Source: a virus
IMG/VR virus record: IMGVR_UViG_3300030118_003002
Span: 1-64,000 of that record
Reading direction: 5' to 3' (one strand)
DNA: 64,000 bases
A program made the position numbers and the translations under genes. How positions within the stretch are numbered: the stretch's first letter is position 1; each line of letters starts with the position of its first letter. Below the pieces are notes generated by a model that saw only the letters and a list, made by a program, of their open reading frames with translations, was not told the DNA's origin and ran no database searches. Below, one piece after another: positions 28,208-59,433 of the stretch.

Positions 28208-31200
28208 GTCGTATTTTTGCCGAAGGAAGCGGAGTAGTTAAAGAAATTACTGAACAAGTTACAACTAATGGAAATAACAGTTTAACAGATGTTGATGGAA
28301 CATATTATATTGGCATGGGAGTTACAGGAACAGGCATTCCCGACAATACATATATTACTGCTACTACATTAGGAAGTAATACATTAACCATTTCTAATAA
28401 TGCTACAACATCGGGACAAACCCCAACTCTTGCATTTAACAAAACTAATTATGATACTGCTACTAATCCTAGATTCAAAACATTTGGAGCATATTCGGGA
28501 AGTGAAAGGTTATACACTCTTGTCTATGAACAACCGCCAAATGGCAGTTCGGAAACATTTGTTCAGCAATTAGCAACAGGAGATAGTGCAGATACAGAAT
28601 ATCTTAATTTAGAAACAACAGAAGGGTATAAAATAGTATCTTATGATTTTAATACAGGGGCGGGTTTAGAGTTATCCCTTAATGCTAACTTTGACTATTT
28701 TGTTTTAGTTCATTCTGATGATTATACCAAACATCACTTTGCTAAAATAACTGATACTATTACAGAAAATAATACTAACTATTTAGGTAATATAGAAAAC
28801 ACTGTTGTAGGTTTTGAATTTGAACCAAAATTAGGAAATGAAATAGAAAGAAATACTAAATTTATGGTTTTTAAAGGGCCACCAAAGACTAATAATCTAA
28901 GAGGTTGTAAATTATTAGCAGTTTCAGCAGGTATTAAAGTGGATTTACAAAATGAATTAGTTTGTGCTAGACCGTTGTTTTATTTCTTTAACGATAACCT
29001 AGATAAAGATAATGAATTAGACCATAATACTAAATATTTTATGGAGTTTATTGGGGCGAATGCTACAACAATAACTCCGAATGTATCTAATACTTTTGTT
29101 ACAATTAATGATAATAAAGAAGTTATTAAAGATTATAGTAAATATACACATACAGTGAAAGTAGTTGATAATCTAAAACAGTTTGATTACCCTGCATATG
29201 CTGAATCTGGTAATCTTCCCTTTTCTTTACCTAATGAATCAAATGGTAGTAATTCCTATCCTCTTACTATACCTACTGTTTTTTCAGATTATAATGATTG
29301 TTTTCCTAATGCAAGAAGGGATAGTGATTTAGATATATCTTCAGTTGCTCATCCGGACTTTTCTCTTGGAAGTTCCGCATTAATTTTTACAGGGCCAAAA
29401 AGATACATTCATTATGATTTTTCACCAACAAGAGCAAATAAAACATACAATCTTTTTGATTTACATGTTTTGGATTCTGCTGATAATAGAGGTTCTTATT
29501 TTGAAGGCAAAATGATTGATAATAAAAATATGTTAGATAAAAAATTAAAAAGGCTAGATAAAGTTAGAGTTAGGCATAGATTACATAAAGGAAGGTTCAA
29601 TGATTGGTTTGCACTAAAAGCAAAAGTAAAATCTTCTTTAGGCTCAAATGAATATAGATTTACCACTGAATATGATTTAAGCACTATATTTAATGTAGGC
29701 GATGAAGTTAAATTAGGAAATTCTTTATTGTCTCCTATTCTGATTGTTGACACAATAGATGCTATCAATAATTTCGGCACTACGGGAAAAGAACAAGATA
29801 TTACCTTTAGAGCAGAAAGTCGAACAGAATTAGCAGAAGCCTTTACTAACACAGGATATACTTTGCCAGAAGGAGATGTTATTTACAGAAGGGCTTGGAA
29901 TACTACCGATGGAACATTATTAACTACTTTTGATATTATAGAAAATAGAAACAACAATTTGTATATTAAATTAATATCCAAAGATTTTGCTTTCTTAGAA
30001 GCAACAGTTACGGCTTCGGATGCAAATAAACAATTATTAACTTTAAGTTTCGGTTCAACCAGCCAAAGTAGCACAGAATCGGCTTTAGATTATATGGAAG
30101 GTTCTTATTACATAGAAGTTGAAAAGTTCACAGGTTCTATCGAAAAAATAGTTAAAGGTAAACAAGATGGACAAACTGTATTTACTATTTCAGGAAGGTC
30201 TGATATTAGGAAATTATTAGGCCCAATTATTAATAAAAATACATTACACTCAGAAGATATTATTTATTCCACAAGTAGTCCTTTTGAAAGATTAGGCCAT
30301 GTTCCTAAATATTCTTCTGTCGCAACAACGGTGGTTTGTTCTTTTGATAGTAAAGTTGTGAGTTTTGGGGCGGCACATAATTTAGCAGTAGGCGACCATA
30401 TTTACGCTAATCATGCTGAACACGGAACTATTTCATATATTGGTGAAGTGGCTTCTTTAGGAGAAATAGATGGTAGTAATGCTGATACGGCAGTTACTCT
30501 AAAGGATTTTTCTTTAGCACAAAGTAGCACTAATCCAACAGCAGAAGACTTCGGATTTGTAGCATTAACTGATTATTATGTTTTTAATAAAGCACTGTCT
30601 TCAAATACTGCAATTGATTCAGCAGCAACATTAGCAGGTGCTTCAACAAAAGGACTTTACTTTACAAGCGGAAAAAAAATATTATCCGATGGTTCAGAAA
30701 GCACTACACTAGTAGGTGCAAGTTGTAGCACTAATCCAAAAGCAGTGGGATATTACATAAGCGATACAGAATCAATTTTATCCGATGCTAAGTTTCAAGC
30801 AAGACTTGATGATAATGCTAGCGGAACAACCACTTCGACAGACAAAACTTACGAAGATTTTGATACGGTAAATACATTATTAGATTTTACAGTATTAAAA
30901 ACCATATCGGATGATAATAGAACTGTTGTTACTTTAGCACCATATATGCCTTTAACTTTAGGAAGAGTGGATATTAATTATGCTAATACACAAGACACTA
31001 CATTCAATGCAACTACTTTAGGCACAATAGATTCTATTCCTGTTAATGGTGATGGATGCAGCACTATTAGCGTAGGAACTTCTAGTTATAATGCTCTAAG
31101 CGGAACAGACCCTTTGAAGTATCATGGTGAACCTGTTTATGCTGATGATACTTTCATAGGAAGGTTTATTTTTTCTAAATTCAAAATGAGCAATAGTCAT

Positions 31201-52195: not shown

Positions 52196-53043
52196 AAATA
52201 TTCCTCCAATGTATTCATTTTTACTTTTATTTTTTCCGTTCTTTTTCTTCTTTTCTTTTCACCTAAGTTAAGAATCCTACAATCAGCATTGTTAAACTTA
52301 GTTTTAACATACTTTACAAATTCTTCATCATTTTTCATCTGCGTAAAGATTCTTTTATCTCCATTCTTGATACCTATTCTTTTTAGAAGTCTAGGTATCT
52401 TAGAATAACTACCTCTTGATGGCATATTGATTCTTCCATAGACATTACCGCTATGGCAATAAGCCAACATCTCATAGAAATAGTTTTGACTCCATCTTCT
52501 TTTTACTACACCATCAATAAATAATATCTTATTAGGGTGAATGTTTTCAACAAGCCAAGACATAATCTGTGTGTCGGCTGGTTTATTGTGTTTCAATACT
52601 TCCGAAACAATGTCTCTATCAGTTTCTTTTAGATAGAACATAACCAAAGAGTAGGTGTCCATATCTAAAGCAAACGGTTCTTGACAATGCGGTGCTAATT
52701 CTTTGATTGATTCTGCTAAATAGTTATGAGAACCTGCTCTTTTGATTTGGCACTTAGCCTTGATTTCCTTTGGAACATCTTTCTCATTTATCGAAGTTAA
52801 AACTATTTCACCTCTATACCTTCTAATAACATTGAGAATAGAATCTTTATTAGGTTTGTAATGCACATCTTCTATAATAATACCATTCTCTTTAGGTAAA
52901 GAACCTAAATCTTGAATGTTCATTTCGTTTGCATATACAACTAAAGCGTTGGGTAACATACCTTTTGCCTTTGTTGTTTTTCCTGTTCCTGTTTTTCCTG
53001 TTATTAGTATTGGTCTATTGTTATTCAAATTACTCATACCCAT
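52192..53043 (-). CDS. degenerate AAA+ ATPase, probable RFC large-subunit-like
   Basis: ITGKTGTGKT, IIIEDVH; next to rfcS. Confidence 0.6.
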   Translation of the reverse strand: MGMSNLNNNRPILITGKTGTGKTTKAKGMLPNALVVYANEMNIQDLGSLPKENGIIIEDVHYKPNKDSILNVIRRYRGEIVLTSINEKDVPKEIKAKCQIKRAGSHNYLAESIKELAPHCQEPFALDMDTYSLVMFYLKETDRDIVSEVLKHNKPADTQIMSWLVENIHPNKILFIDGVVKRRWSQNYFYEMLAYCHSGNVYGRINMPSRGSYSKIPRLLKRIGIKNGDKRIFTQMKNDEEFVKYVKTKFNNADCRILNLGEKKRRKRTEKIKVKMNTLEEYL

Positions 53044-53447
53044 TATATCAATCCCTTTATACGGAATAATTCTTCCATACCTTCTAGCGTTAAGTGTTTA
53101 TTATCTGAAACTATTCCTACTGCTTTCCTAAACGGAGTCCATAGGTCATTCTTATCAATAAGATGAGGATGGATTAAAACCATCAATCTATACATATTTT
53201 TAATGCCACCAATTTTTAGTATTGGTGCAGGTCTTGATTTAGATTCCTGTTGTATTACAGAAGATTTTATTTCGTGTTGAAGAAGCGTTCTCGACACTGC
53301 TTCAACAAACTTCTCTCTTCCTCTTAACTTAACCATCAATCTAACTCTATAACCTATGTTAGAATTATCATCTCTTATGATTTGTATTTCAGGTTTTCCT
53401 ACACTTAACATAATTCCTACTATCATATCTTTACTATACATATTCAT
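53043..53447 (-). CDS. single-motif LAGLIDADG-fold protein, likely catalytically inactive
   Basis: IVGIMLSVG helix, GYRVRL strand, C-terminal HLTLEG..EL..IK. Confidence 0.6.
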   Translation of the reverse strand: MNMYSKDMIVGIMLSVGKPEIQIIRDDNSNIGYRVRLMVKLRGREKFVEAVSRTLLQHEIKSSVIQQESKSRPAPILKIGGIKNMYRLMVLIHPHLIDKNDLWTPFRKAVGIVSDNKHLTLEGMEELFRIKGLI

Positions 53448-53794: not shown

Positions 53795-54241
53795 TCACCT
53801 TTCCTTTACATAATCTTCCTGTGAAGGCCAATGCCCGTTAGGTTCTTGGGTGTGACTCAACTCCCACCAATACAAATGTTGCGCTGAAATCCTTTGGTGA
53901 TTTTTAGCATTCGCATTATCTTCAGCCCACACTACCATATCGGAAATAGCACTTTCTAACCATTCAGACAATAAACTAACAAAAGACCTACTGACCGGCA
54001 TTTCAGTGCTATTATTAATCAATTGTTTAAGACTGATTCTAGAAGAGTATTTCTTCTTCTCCGGTTGTTTAGGTTCTATAAACTCACCATCTTCTGTAAA
54101 GTATGGAACAAGATGTTGAAGCATCTTTTTTGGTCTGCCTTGTTCGTGAAGAACATTTTTCAAATAAGCATATCCATCCTTTACATCAATGCAAGTATAT
54201 GTCTCCATATCAATAACTGTCAATTGTCCTTTCTGTATCAT
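53795..54241 (-). CDS. histone-fold protein with N-terminal extension
   Basis: SLKQLI...MPVSRSFVSLLSEWLESAISDMVVWAEDNANAKNHQRISAQHL aligns to the archaeal histone a1-L1-a2-L2-a3 fold. Confidence 0.7.
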   Translation of the reverse strand: MIQKGQLTVIDMETYTCIDVKDGYAYLKNVLHEQGRPKKMLQHLVPYFTEDGEFIEPKQPEKKKYSSRISLKQLINNSTEMPVSRSFVSLLSEWLESAISDMVVWAEDNANAKNHQRISAQHLYWWELSHTQEPNGHWPSQEDYVKER

Positions 54242-54675
54242 TCGGGTTCACTCCTTTGTGTTTGTTTTAACAGGTTCAAAATCAAATCATGGTCTGCACC
54301 ATTTTCTAATTGAACAATAGCCATGTTAACAAATGTCTTATGTCTAAGGATTTCTTGATGTTGTATATCTGCCTCTTTTATTTTAGCATGAATATTACGA
54401 AGGTCATCGTTCAATACAAAACCAGCCTCTTTACTAATCTTCTTATCTATTTTTGCCCTTTGGAATGCAGCATCTTTGGGATATTTTTTGCCTATAATAT
54501 CATATATTCTATGATGTAAATGTCTTAGTTTATTAATAGAAATCTTCATTCGTTTCTTGTATAACTCCAACATTCTTTCAGTTTGCCTTTTGTTTAACTG
54601 TTCTATTGAAAATATATTTCCCTTTTCATCTGCAACATATTTATCATGCGGCTTTGCATATTCATCACCCATCAC
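54238..54675 (-). CDS. hypothetical helical protein
   Basis: GTGA/ATGA coupling. Confidence 0.6.
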   Translation of the reverse strand: MMGDEYAKPHDKYVADEKGNIFSIEQLNKRQTERMLELYKKRMKISINKLRHLHHRIYDIIGKKYPKDAAFQRAKIDKKISKEAGFVLNDDLRNIHAKIKEADIQHQEILRHKTFVNMAIVQLENGADHDLILNLLKQTQRSEPE

Positions 54676-56201
54676 ACCATCTCCATTAAATCATCAAATG
54701 TATTAATATCTGCTACAAACTTATCATCTCTAATTCTAACTAGTCTTGGAAACCTTAATCCCCAATTACCTTGAGCATCTTGTGAAATTAAATCAGCAGT
54801 TACTTCAAGGACAATTCTTGGAATAAAGTGATAAGTGCCATTAGAATGACTATCAATATTTCTTCTTAAATCATTTGTCAATCTAACTAACTGCGAATCA
54901 CTGAAACCACTACCAATAGAACCTAAAGGAACATAATCACCATGTTCACTTCTAACTCCCATAGCGAATGAAGCAAATACATTTGCCCTTCTTCCTTCAC
55001 CATACTTTGCACTAAGAACAACTACATCTAGATTAATTCTAGGGGGTTTGTATTTAGCCCAACCAACGCTTCTTTTACCGGATTCATAAGGCAAAGAGGC
55101 ATCCTTAACTATAATACCTTCAAAGCCGTCATTGATTGCTCTATTGTAAAATGCTAAGGTATCTGTTCCTGTCATTCTATGTGCTTGGTCGGGTAATGTT
55201 TTAATCGCTATTAATCTATCAGAATACGGCAAGTCCATAATGGTGTCCTTACCAAACTTTAGACAATCGAAAATAACCCATTTTACTTTGACCCTTTCTC
55301 TTGCTTCTTCGTGATTCTTAGAATGGACTCTTGTTCCCATTAGTTTATGTTCAGCAGGTGAACCATCTTCATTGATAGGATATATTTCCCCATCAAGAAT
55401 ACAAGTGTGAACATTGTATTTTCTAACTTGTTCGACTACATCTTGAAACTGCGGAGTAACAATATTTCCTTTGCGATTAAAGATAATTACACTATCTCCT
55501 TCTTTGTGAATCTGATACCTATTACCATCATATTTGTAATCAACGATTCTATTAACAGGCCATTTGTTCATAGGTATTTCTTTTGCTAACATAGGTGCTA
55601 CAAAAGAACCATGTTCTAGATTAGTAGGTGGTTCAGAATTAGATTCATAATATCTTACCACATCAGAAATATTGTTAAAGTTACAATGCTTCTTAACTTC
55701 TGATACCTTCTTGTTGTAGTGCTTTGCTATTACTTTCTTAACAATACCACTGTTGATTCCGTTGCGTGGTGTCTTTAACCAATAACGGATAAACCAACGA
55801 CATTCTAATGCGCTCATATTAATAATAGCGTGTTGTATAGTTTTGAAAGATTCAGTTTTGATACCATCACAATCCATAGAAAGCAAACTCAATACACTTG
55901 ATAGCGGAGTTTGTTCTTTTGTTTCTGCTGATATATCCAAGTAATAGATAGCATCTCCTAAATCATCATGTGCTTTGTATTCGCTTTCTATTTCATCTTC
56001 AAAAACATCGTATATCTTAGCCATCCACTTTTTTGCTCTTGATAATCCTATGTTATTATTAGGATATTCTCTAGCCAAAATTGCGAATAGTGCTGGTTTA
56101 TTCTTGAATGTTCCCACTTGTTCCGTTATCATCGAAACTTGTTGTGTTGGTGTTTTCTGGTCTGTGCTTTCTAATAGTCTCGCTAGTCTGTTCATTGTCA
56201 T
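54672..56201 (-). CDS. lig: ATP-dependent DNA ligase (replicative type with N-terminal DNA-binding domain)
   Basis: PMLA, YKYDGNR, ILDGE, EGIIVKD, WAKYK, LRFPR...RDDK. Confidence 0.95.
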   Translation of the reverse strand: MTMNRLARLLESTDQKTPTQQVSMITEQVGTFKNKPALFAILAREYPNNNIGLSRAKKWMAKIYDVFEDEIESEYKAHDDLGDAIYYLDISAETKEQTPLSSVLSLLSMDCDGIKTESFKTIQHAIINMSALECRWFIRYWLKTPRNGINSGIVKKVIAKHYNKKVSEVKKHCNFNNISDVVRYYESNSEPPTNLEHGSFVAPMLAKEIPMNKWPVNRIVDYKYDGNRYQIHKEGDSVIIFNRKGNIVTPQFQDVVEQVRKYNVHTCILDGEIYPINEDGSPAEHKLMGTRVHSKNHEEARERVKVKWVIFDCLKFGKDTIMDLPYSDRLIAIKTLPDQAHRMTGTDTLAFYNRAINDGFEGIIVKDASLPYESGKRSVGWAKYKPPRINLDVVVLSAKYGEGRRANVFASFAMGVRSEHGDYVPLGSIGSGFSDSQLVRLTNDLRRNIDSHSNGTYHFIPRIVLEVTADLISQDAQGNWGLRFPRLVRIRDDKFVADINTFDDLMEMV

Positions 56202-56331
56202 TTATAATCATCTCCATATTTTTATTTACTGTCTTAACCAATTCTTTTAGAAGGCGGCTAATTTTACCTTCGTGCTTTTCAGCATAAGTCCACATAGCAT
56301 TTGCTAAGTAAATCCATTCATTCTTCTTCAT
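56098..56331 (-). CDS. hypothetical protein
   Basis: Fills operon gap. Confidence 0.5.
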   Translation of the reverse strand: MKKNEWIYLANAMWTYAEKHEGKISRLLKELVKTVNKNMEMIINDNEQTSETIRKHRPENTNTTSFDDNGTSGNIQE

Positions 56332-56686
56332 CAGAAGCCGCCCCTTGTTCTATACTATTCATCATTCTAACATAATTAATCATCATAGTCTGCATTACTG
56401 CTGACTCTTCATTTTTATTTTGTTCCATTAAACGATGTAGCATATGAATCATCGAGGCTTGACTGATAGCAGGTGCTAATCTAGCCAAATTGTCGGAATT
56501 AAACATTTCCCAATACATCACAAATGATGCTCTTGGTAAGAACATACCATTCCTAACTACGGCATAATTGCTCTCAAAATGACCCAATGCCGCAGGGTTG
56601 TTCTTAATTTTCTTTTTCATGGCTTTTGCCCATTCAATAAATCTTTTATCATTCGTTACATCTAAAAATATCTTATTCAAATTCAT
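56318..56686 (-). CDS. hypothetical protein
   Basis: ATGA coupling. Confidence 0.65.
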   Translation of the reverse strand: MNLNKIFLDVTNDKRFIEWAKAMKKKIKNNPAALGHFESNYAVVRNGMFLPRASFVMYWEMFNSDNLARLAPAISQASMIHMLHRLMEQNKNEESAVMQTMMINYVRMMNSIEQGAASDEEE

Positions 56687-56964
56687 TCTTCTTCATCTCC
56701 AAATAGTCTATTCAATAATAATAATTTCAACATATGTCCTTGAAACTTACTCCAAGATTTATCAATATGTTCCTTAGTTACTCTCGAACCCCTTCCTTCA
56801 CCCGCACCAACGGGCATTTCTAATTCTATGAATGCAGACCATAAATCAATCAATTCAGTTGAATATCTTCTATGTCTATCTAAAGCACCCATTTCAAATT
56901 GCCTATGCTTATTCGCTTTTCTAACGCTCGCTTTCGCTTGCACTTCACTAATTCTAAATTTCAT
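56683..56964 (-). CDS. hypothetical protein, possible divergent histone fold
   Basis: Short helix, about 27-aa helix, then SRVTKEHID. Confidence 0.55.
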   Translation of the reverse strand: MKFRISEVQAKASVRKANKHRQFEMGALDRHRRYSTELIDLWSAFIELEMPVGAGEGRGSRVTKEHIDKSWSKFQGHMLKLLLLNRLFGDEEE

Positions 56965-59072: not shown

Positions 59073-59218
59073 TATAATCTCTCCAATCCATAATATCCTT
59101 CTTCTTGAACAGGCATAGCATTAAAGTTAGCCCAGCATTTTTCGCTACAAAAATATCTCCAACCGGTAGCACCAAACGCTTTGTATCTAATTGCACTTTG
59201 TCCACAATTATCACACAT
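59072..59218 (-). CDS. 48-aa TRASH/treble-clef Zn-finger microprotein (not in ORF track)
   Basis: MCDNCG...YFCSEKC; TAATG coupling at both ends. Confidence 0.65.
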   Translation of the reverse strand: MCDNCGQSAIRYKAFGATGWRYFCSEKCWANFNAMPVQEEGYYGLERL

Positions 59219-59433
59219 TATACCACCGCCAAAATAAACTCATAGGGAATAAACAGAATATCGTTCTGCCTTGTATATTCTCTTTTATCATTAAAAAGAA
59301 CAACCTTATCTCTAAGGCTGGTATCAACCTTACAATCTATTACTCTCCCTTGATTAGCGGCTTTAGTCAAAATACCGCTTTCGCTTTTTGTTTCTTCTAT
59401 TTTCACAATTACATATTCTCCTACTGCTTTCAT
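59218..59433 (-). CDS. groES: co-chaperonin (GroES-like)
   Basis: MKAVGEYVIVK...SESGIL...G.V...DKVVLF...ILAVV. Confidence 0.8.
   Translation of the reverse strand: MKAVGEYVIVKIEETKSESGILTKAANQGRVIDCKVDTSLRDKVVLFNDKREYTRQNDILFIPYEFILAVV

Follow-up and report, generated by a model that had tools for sequence, protein, structure and literature searches.

Most work on virus-encoded histones has dealt with giant viruses that infect eukaryotes. The closest described system to the one reported here is that of the 'viral KOW histone-fold proteins' (VKHFP), which were mined from IMG/VR 4 and consist of a histone fold, a long loop and a KOW-like barrel resembling Spt5 KOW6, PDB 5OHQ (Liu et al., hLife 2025; PMC13681535). 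Cellular points of comparison are the archaeal histones HMfA and HMfB, the histone HmvA, the α3-truncated histones, and the eukaryotic histone-fold heterodimers that bind DNA without wrapping it. Here we describe two genes from a window of 64,000 nucleotides (positions 1 to 64,000 of record IMGVR_UViG_3300030118_003002, a complete IMG/VR virus record of 96,234 bp). One, open reading frame (ORF) A, has the architecture of the VKHFP class; the other, ORF B, very probably encodes a stand-alone histone fold of a family that we did not find described. Both belong to the replication operon of a virus whose gene content fits a magrovirus, and their products may well act as architectural DNA-binding dimers.

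ORF A shows significant sequence-profile similarity to histone families, which points to histone homology. A profile of the A family retrieves HmvA from the PDB at E 1.4e-8, followed by H2B, NF-YB, NC2β, HMfA/B and Bd0055, and hhalign of the family against 15 real archaeal histones, whose genes were fetched from genomes with the HMfB sequence serving as bait only, gives E 3.5e-5 over 54 columns. Pfam recognizes some members of the family: PF00808 is matched by 11/29 (best E 5.2e-5), PF00125 by 6/29 and DUF1931, weakly, by 6/29. Taken alone, the A protein of the window is below threshold in Pfam, and the PF00808 cut-off is reached by neither it nor the B protein. The AlphaFold2 model of A, built on a 29-sequence alignment (predicted local distance difference test, pLDDT, 90.8), places a four-stranded barrel at residues 7–41, mostly coil over residues 42–70, helices at 71–78 and 85–112 (28 residues), a single helical turn at 120–122 that corresponds to α3, a loop, and a last helix at 139–147. 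The predicted structure contains the α1-L1-long α2-L2-α3 geometry of a histone fold, and residues 68–134 superpose on HMfA (1b67) with Z 5.9 and a root-mean-square deviation (rmsd) of 1.6 Å over 59/68 residues at 19% identity, and on HMfB with an rmsd of 1.8 Å. Foldseek aligns the same fold with HmvA (8bdk) at 1.2 Å over 55 columns and 25% identity. An initial annotation of this DNA had proposed a C-terminal histone fold behind a beta-rich N-domain for A and a second, more doubtful histone fold for B; both frames lie on the minus strand where that annotation put them and carry the motifs that it quoted (PVS and QRISAQHL in A, SRVTKEHID in B), and its description of A holds.

The N-terminal barrel of A resembles Spt5 KOW5 (5xog_W; Z 6.2, rmsd 2.6 Å, 53 residues aligned), Spt5 KOW6-7 (5ohq_A; Z 5.9, rmsd 2.5 Å, 48 aligned) and archaeal Spt5 (4zn3; Z 5.1), and is matched about as well by Tudor and chromo barrels. 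At E <= 1, PF00467 (KOW) was found neither for the A protein of the window nor among the families listed for the 29 members, so that the likeness of this SH3 barrel to KOW domains is one of fold alone. A conserved G-R-P-K-K loop in the barrel (residues 35–39; 54125–54139, minus strand), which we take to resemble the core of an AT-hook and which varies in the family as RGRFKK, RGRLRK and RGRPRK, could make a putative minor-groove contact. With this architecture, its 5OHQ match and its source in IMG/VR contigs of tailed viruses (Caudoviricetes), A matches the VKHFP class and is in that sense essentially known, the assignment being one of architecture and structural match, not of cluster sequence identity. 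In the text consulted, the VKHFP report presents a monomer model only and names no host, no partner and no 'magrovirus' (PMC13681535). New for A are its placement in magroviruses and in a replication operon, a distribution among viruses only, and a comparison with histones at the level of single residues, which follows.

HMfA and HMfB (PF00808; 1b67, 1a7w, 5t5k) align with A over the whole chain, at 1.6–1.8 Å rmsd over 58–59 residues, and A differs from them in its additional barrel, linker and C-terminal extension. The hhalign register pairs S84 of A with S21 of HMfB, P82 with R19, R117 with T54 and H122 with D59. The serine is kept and practically invariant in the family (S84, 101/107 members), A110 is present in 96/107 and H122 in 92/107, and the three residues of the HMf-type nucleosomal signature are replaced: R19 by proline, T54 by arginine and D59 by histidine. 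At the junction of L2 and α3, 68/107 members have R or K together with H, and only 2/107 have the T/D pair. The C-terminal extension has conserved positions of its own, G136 (89/107), W138 (84/107) and P139 (80/107). HmvA, the best match of the A histone fold both in sequence and in Foldseek, is a cellular protein of 96 residues that is matched over residues 5–65 only, and it has no counterpart to the barrel. With the α3-truncated histones (DUF1931; Bd0055/HBb; the 'phage histones' of Schwab et al., 2024, PMC11390915) A shares the one-turn α3, and HBb chains are among its matches. That class is, however, defined by an α3 of 3–4 residues and also by an α2 shortened by 4–5 residues; A falls outside it, since its α2 has the full length of 28 residues and its DUF1931 score is 16.6 bits against a cut-off of 21.8.

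For ORF B the indications come from structure prediction. The AlphaFold2 model (25 sequences) reaches pLDDT 90.4 in all five models, with a predicted template modelling score of 0.73, and shows helices at 7–17, 27–49 and 64–91 in the predicted order α1-L1-long α2-L2-α3, with an α2 of 23 residues, an L2 of 14 and an α3 of 28. B shares helix order, stand-alone form and similar size with HMfA/HMfB and differs in its long L2 and long α3. Foldseek against the PDB returned histones from nucleosomes and further complexes with the histone fold (H2A, H3, NF-Y, TAF12, Asgard HHoB) at probabilities of 0.63–0.99, but with E of only 0.06–0.2. An independent comparison with VIA-align against 48,161 representative chains placed histone-fold proteins at every one of ranks 1–24, covering 65–85 of the 93 residues: NC2β (1jfi_B, Z 6.3) and CENP-X (Z 6.2, rmsd 2.5 Å, 72 residues) came first, then H3, TAFs, CENP-T/W and Dpb4. 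CENP-A/H3 was matched by a second structural comparison (Z 6.0–6.5, rmsd ~3 Å over 70–75 residues). Because the list of matches is uniform and most of the chain is covered, we read B as a histone fold despite middling Z scores, and regard this as very probable; the structural prediction thus bears out the fold that the initial annotation had offered tentatively. The top matches of B, namely NC2α/β, CENP-S/X (MHF), CENP-T/W, Dpb3/Dpb4 and TAFs, also match A (Z 5.4–6.5). In these eukaryotic non-nucleosomal heterodimers two different folds pair and bind DNA without wrapping it; they have no sequence relation to B, and no member stands above the others.

One trait in the sequences of B relatives also hints at histone kinship. 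At positions 61 and 66, where L2 meets α3, 50/65 members have R/H and 8/65 have T/D, mixed pairs being rare, so that most members have R/H at the places of T54/D59. The T/D sub-lineage is spaced exactly as T54/D59 of archaeal histones, in a MAFFT column that is not a scored match, and is suggestive of histone homology. The claim that both proteins have His in place of the conserved α3 Asp is thereby confirmed for A (H122 opposite D59) and supported for B. Nearly invariant in B are R4, Q9, R15, A17, N18, R21, D40, G57, G59 and R61, and the candidate DNA-contact residues R4, K/R11, R15, R21 (in L1), R58 and R61 (in L2) are kept in nearly all members. Net charge across the family runs from +2 to +7 in α1-L1 and from 0 to +4 in L2. 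A separate observation concerns the end of the protein, ...GDEEE: the stop codon of B lies within GAAGAAGAATGA (56683–56720, minus strand) and overlaps the next start, and the acidic DEEE tail may be a by-product of this coupling signal. In the ESM Atlas, the leads for B, all below 0.9, pointed to HAT/Suf repeat clusters only and were taken as chance.

Both are virus-only genes. A word-index search with A found five close relatives, its profile recovered 39 clusters from 1.84 billion representatives, and a pattern scan located relatives on 126 IMG/VR contigs. The same kind of scan over 185,579 prokaryote genomes found none, although it needs a conserved peptide and distant relatives could escape it; among 50,697 annotated phage records, tblastn found no match to A or B. 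Direct searches with B likewise found five close relatives, and its profile recovered 39 distinct sequences, down to ~22% identity, among the ORFs of A-centred loci, and 28 clusters in a large database, all unnamed and without Pfam domains. The virus has one copy each of A and B, and a PF00808 search of its own genome found no match. One related IMG/VR record of 184,733 bp contains two non-identical B homologues ~90 kb apart (29826–30086 and 119834–120103), which suggests that it is two related ~92 kb genomes joined in one assembly, not one very large virus.

The minus strand bears almost every gene of the window from ~38 kb on, and A and B stand in a tightly overlapped array there (Table 1). 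Its order is Cpn60, a Zn-ribbon ORF, the PC4-like ORF, ORF B, ORFs of 122 and 77 aa, the ligase, a 145 aa ORF, ORF A, ORFs of 118 and 134 aa, a P-loop ORF and an RFC-like clamp loader. The earlier description of A and B as flanking the ligase is only loosely right: a single ORF separates the ligase from A, and two ORFs separate it from B. The ATG start of each of the two overlaps the preceding stop as ATGA, and a Shine-Dalgarno-like purine run precedes each start; A and B are real, conserved and translationally coupled genes of the replication operon. The stretch is present in marine metagenomes of nine studies, no RNA run being listed among those that carry it. Magroviruses of Marine Group II archaea are marine and combine a GroEL-type chaperonin with an archaeal-type replisome (PMC5434244), and the gene content and marine origin of this virus fit that group. 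As to the ligase itself, the 77-aa ORF (56098–56331, minus strand) overlaps the start of the annotated ligase ORF (54672–56201, minus strand) by 104 nt. The true start of the ligase may be a later ATG, or else the overlap of the frames is real; the lineage L034, discussed below, is arranged alike.

Table 1. Positions of ORFs A and B, the parts of A, and neighbouring genes in the window.
Feature	Position	Strand	Evidence or remark
ORF A, 148 aa	53795..54241	minus	KOW-like barrel, basic linker, predicted histone fold, Trp-rich C-terminal extension
A residues 1-58, SH3-like beta-barrel	54068..54241	minus	Spt5 KOW-like; conserved G-R-P-K-K loop 35-39
A residues 59-69, Pro/Lys-rich basic linker	54035..54067	minus	no regular secondary structure in model
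A residues 70-128, predicted histone fold	53858..54034	minus	α1 71-78, L1, α2 85-112, L2, one-turn α3
A residues 129-148, conserved G-x-W-P ... Y-V extension	53798..53857	minus	short terminal helix
ORF B, 93 aa	56683..56964	minus	stand-alone predicted histone fold
ATP-dependent DNA ligase, between B and A	54672..56201	minus	PF01068 E 1.4e-34; PF04679; PF04675
PC4-like ORF, 65 aa	56961..57158	minus	PF02229 E 0.0025, below cut-off; stop overlaps B start
Cpn60 chaperonin	array	minus	PF00118 E 1.4e-47

The explanation that we find moderately probable is that A and B are architectural DNA-binding histone-fold dimers of the magrovirus replication and expression operon. Each would act as a handshake dimer, with itself or with the other of the two proteins. 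While the double-stranded viral DNA is being replicated and transcribed, the dimers would bind to it and probably bend it or form bridges. From the predicted folds we infer both the dimerisation and the DNA binding. α1, L1 and L2 segments contact DNA in histone dimers, and the contacts here would be made by the paired-loop sites, the basic α1 of B and the basic linker of A, whose net charge is +4 in this protein and ranges from 0 to +9 in the full-length members of its family. In most A relatives position 73 is K and position 76 is K or R, opposite R10 and K13 of HMfB in the hhalign register, and position 117 is R or K. A further contact would come from the A barrel, which would touch either nucleic acid or a factor associated with a polymerase. 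The viral DNA would not be wrapped into nucleosomes: such wrapping is unlikely because the L1 Arg is Pro in A, the T54/D59 residues are replaced in both proteins and the α3 of A is one turn long, with which the usual four-helix-bundle contact between dimers would go. Several observations weigh against DNA-binding dimers of this kind. The A protein of the window lacks the basic residues that most of its family has at positions 73 and 76, having Q and N there, and its histone-fold part is neutral to acidic, with a charge of −2 here and −4 to +5 in the family. No member of the B family (0/25) matches a histone family in Pfam, and the structural Z scores are middling (~6), in a range that common arrangements can yield. 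The only histone-like protein reported from the presumed hosts, Poseidoniales, is acidic and four-fold and possibly does not bind DNA (PMC13260811), a precedent for a role away from DNA. Because of the same report a competition of the viral proteins with host histones is not favored, and the takeover of host chromatin that had been suggested for them finds no support.

The initial annotation had further proposed that A and B form a heterodimer, acting for instance as an NC2- or TAF-like cofactor, and this can be set against the genomic record. B lies 1.5–3.4 kb upstream of A in 48/49 A loci with enough upstream DNA, and A is present in 71/71 B loci with enough downstream DNA. This near-perfect co-occurrence is not proof of binding, because synteny extends over the entire module and the loci are related, with many of them on shared contigs; synteny of the module accounts for it without any binding. 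Four ORFs stand between A and B, and the lineage L034 (5770–8444) encodes Cpn60, the Zn-ribbon and PC4-like ORFs, a 121-aa ORF, a 75-aa ORF, the ligase and A, with B and the 145-aa ORF absent at the syntenic site and no B in the 36.6 kb of this 40%-complete record. A mirror-tree test on distance matrices from 71 non-redundant loci, a weak method, gave partial correlations of 0.22 for A-B, 0.63 for A-ligase, 0.44 for A with the Zn-ribbon ORF and 0.37 for B with the 122-aa ORF, and thus no signal of A-B co-evolution above unrelated neighbours. Residue states at the L2/α3 positions of A and B track lineage, with no obvious rule across the two proteins at these loci. A complex prediction for A(62–148) with B scored 0.00 against a mark of 0.32, which counts neither for nor against binding. 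An obligate A:B heterodimer serving as an NC2-, TAF- or NF-Y-like transcription cofactor together with the viral TFB and PC4-like proteins could draw on the single operon, on the unusual R-x4-H that both proteins have in place of T-x4-D, on the translational coupling of B to the PC4-like gene and on the occurrence of KOW domains in transcription elongation factors. NC2β is among the top matches of B and in the profile list of A, but for B it ties with H3, CENP-X, CENP-T/W, Dpb4 and TAFs at Z ~6, so the match does not single out an NC2/TAF-like role, and we think such a cofactor unlikely. A virus-specific heterodimer in which the R-x4-H pairs replace T-x4-D in a coupled way, and in which the A barrel tethers the complex to a transcribing or replicating polymerase, appears equally doubtful. 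For the assembly itself, our rough estimate is that separate homodimers are quite plausible, a heterodimer possible and any other arrangement unlikely. The neighbour that co-varies most with B is the 122-aa ORF (56318–56686, minus strand), which is translationally coupled to the end of B and has a weak DUF7824 match (E 0.0009); it is a candidate functional partner of B.

Other readings dispense with DNA binding, with the histone nature of B, or with the absence of nucleosomes. The histone folds could be protein–protein modules that do not bind DNA, serving the replisome as an accessory pair, much like Dpb3-Dpb4 or the MHF scaffolds, or acting as a decoy for a host factor. The position of the genes within the replication module beside ligase and clamp loader would suit this, as would the histone-fold part of A, which is not basic, its conserved Trp-rich extension, a possible docking surface, and the Dpb4-Dpb3, CENP-S/X and MHF chains among the structural matches; yet the arginines of B on α1, L1 and L2 are nearly invariant, A has its basic linker, and Dpb3-Dpb4 and MHF themselves bind double-stranded DNA, so that we hold this to be improbable. 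It is about as hard to credit that B is no histone homologue at all but an unrelated basic three-helix protein that AlphaFold2 has drawn open and histone-like, leaving A as the only histone fold. The sequence searches would allow it: even with 25 diverse sequences B gave nothing significant against Pfam, PHROGs, PDB sequences and BFVD, its profile retrieved no histone chain from the PDB sequences, hhalign of B against archaeal histones gave a probability of 0.2%, and A against B aligned over 10 columns at a probability of 0.7%. The Foldseek E-values and the atypical lengths of α2, L2 and α3 point the same way. Against this stand the 24 top ranks obtained without Foldseek, with most of the chain covered, the pLDDT of all five models, and the alternation of T-x4-D and R-x4-H at the expected place before α3. 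That A and B, after the manner of Marseilleviridae, package the viral genome as nucleosome-like particles, whether inside the virion or inside the cell, is highly improbable. One virus does encode two different histone folds, and viral nucleosomes are established in the literature for giant viruses; but the changes in L1, at T54/D59 and in α3 described above all oppose it, A is not basic, and head-tail viruses use a portal to package their DNA in naked form.

The word 'histone' does not occur in two magrovirus papers, PMC5434244 among them, and the B family was not found described in the literature; it is a new family of a known kind, the viral histone-fold proteins. B is invisible to the hidden Markov model searches of published surveys, which therefore probably under-count viral histone folds. 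A globally abundant group of archaeal viruses keeps two different histone-fold genes fixed in a replication operon, while the presumed host order has been reported with only an odd, possibly non-DNA-binding histone-like protein. If A and B pair, or if the barrel links the fold to a polymerase, they would offer a compact, expressible system for the re-use of histone folds outside nucleosomes. Should the tethered heterodimer prove true, the virus would bring its own minimal module for chromatin and elongation coupling into a host lineage without DNA-wrapping histones.

Two further genes near the array deserve mention. Just upstream of Cpn60, a 71-aa ORF (59218–59433, minus strand) has a weak Cpn10/GroES match (PF00166, E 0.008; 16.6 bits, below the cut-off of 21.1). 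In the magrovirus paper of 2017 (PMC5434244) a GroES gene was expected to be absent, and this ORF is worth a look as a candidate divergent viral co-chaperonin. Two genes downstream of A, the 134-aa ORF (53043–53447, minus strand) matches phrog_12980, an HNH endonuclease, at E 1.4e-5; it occurs in 155 related loci and so behaves as a fixed gene, not a mobile one.

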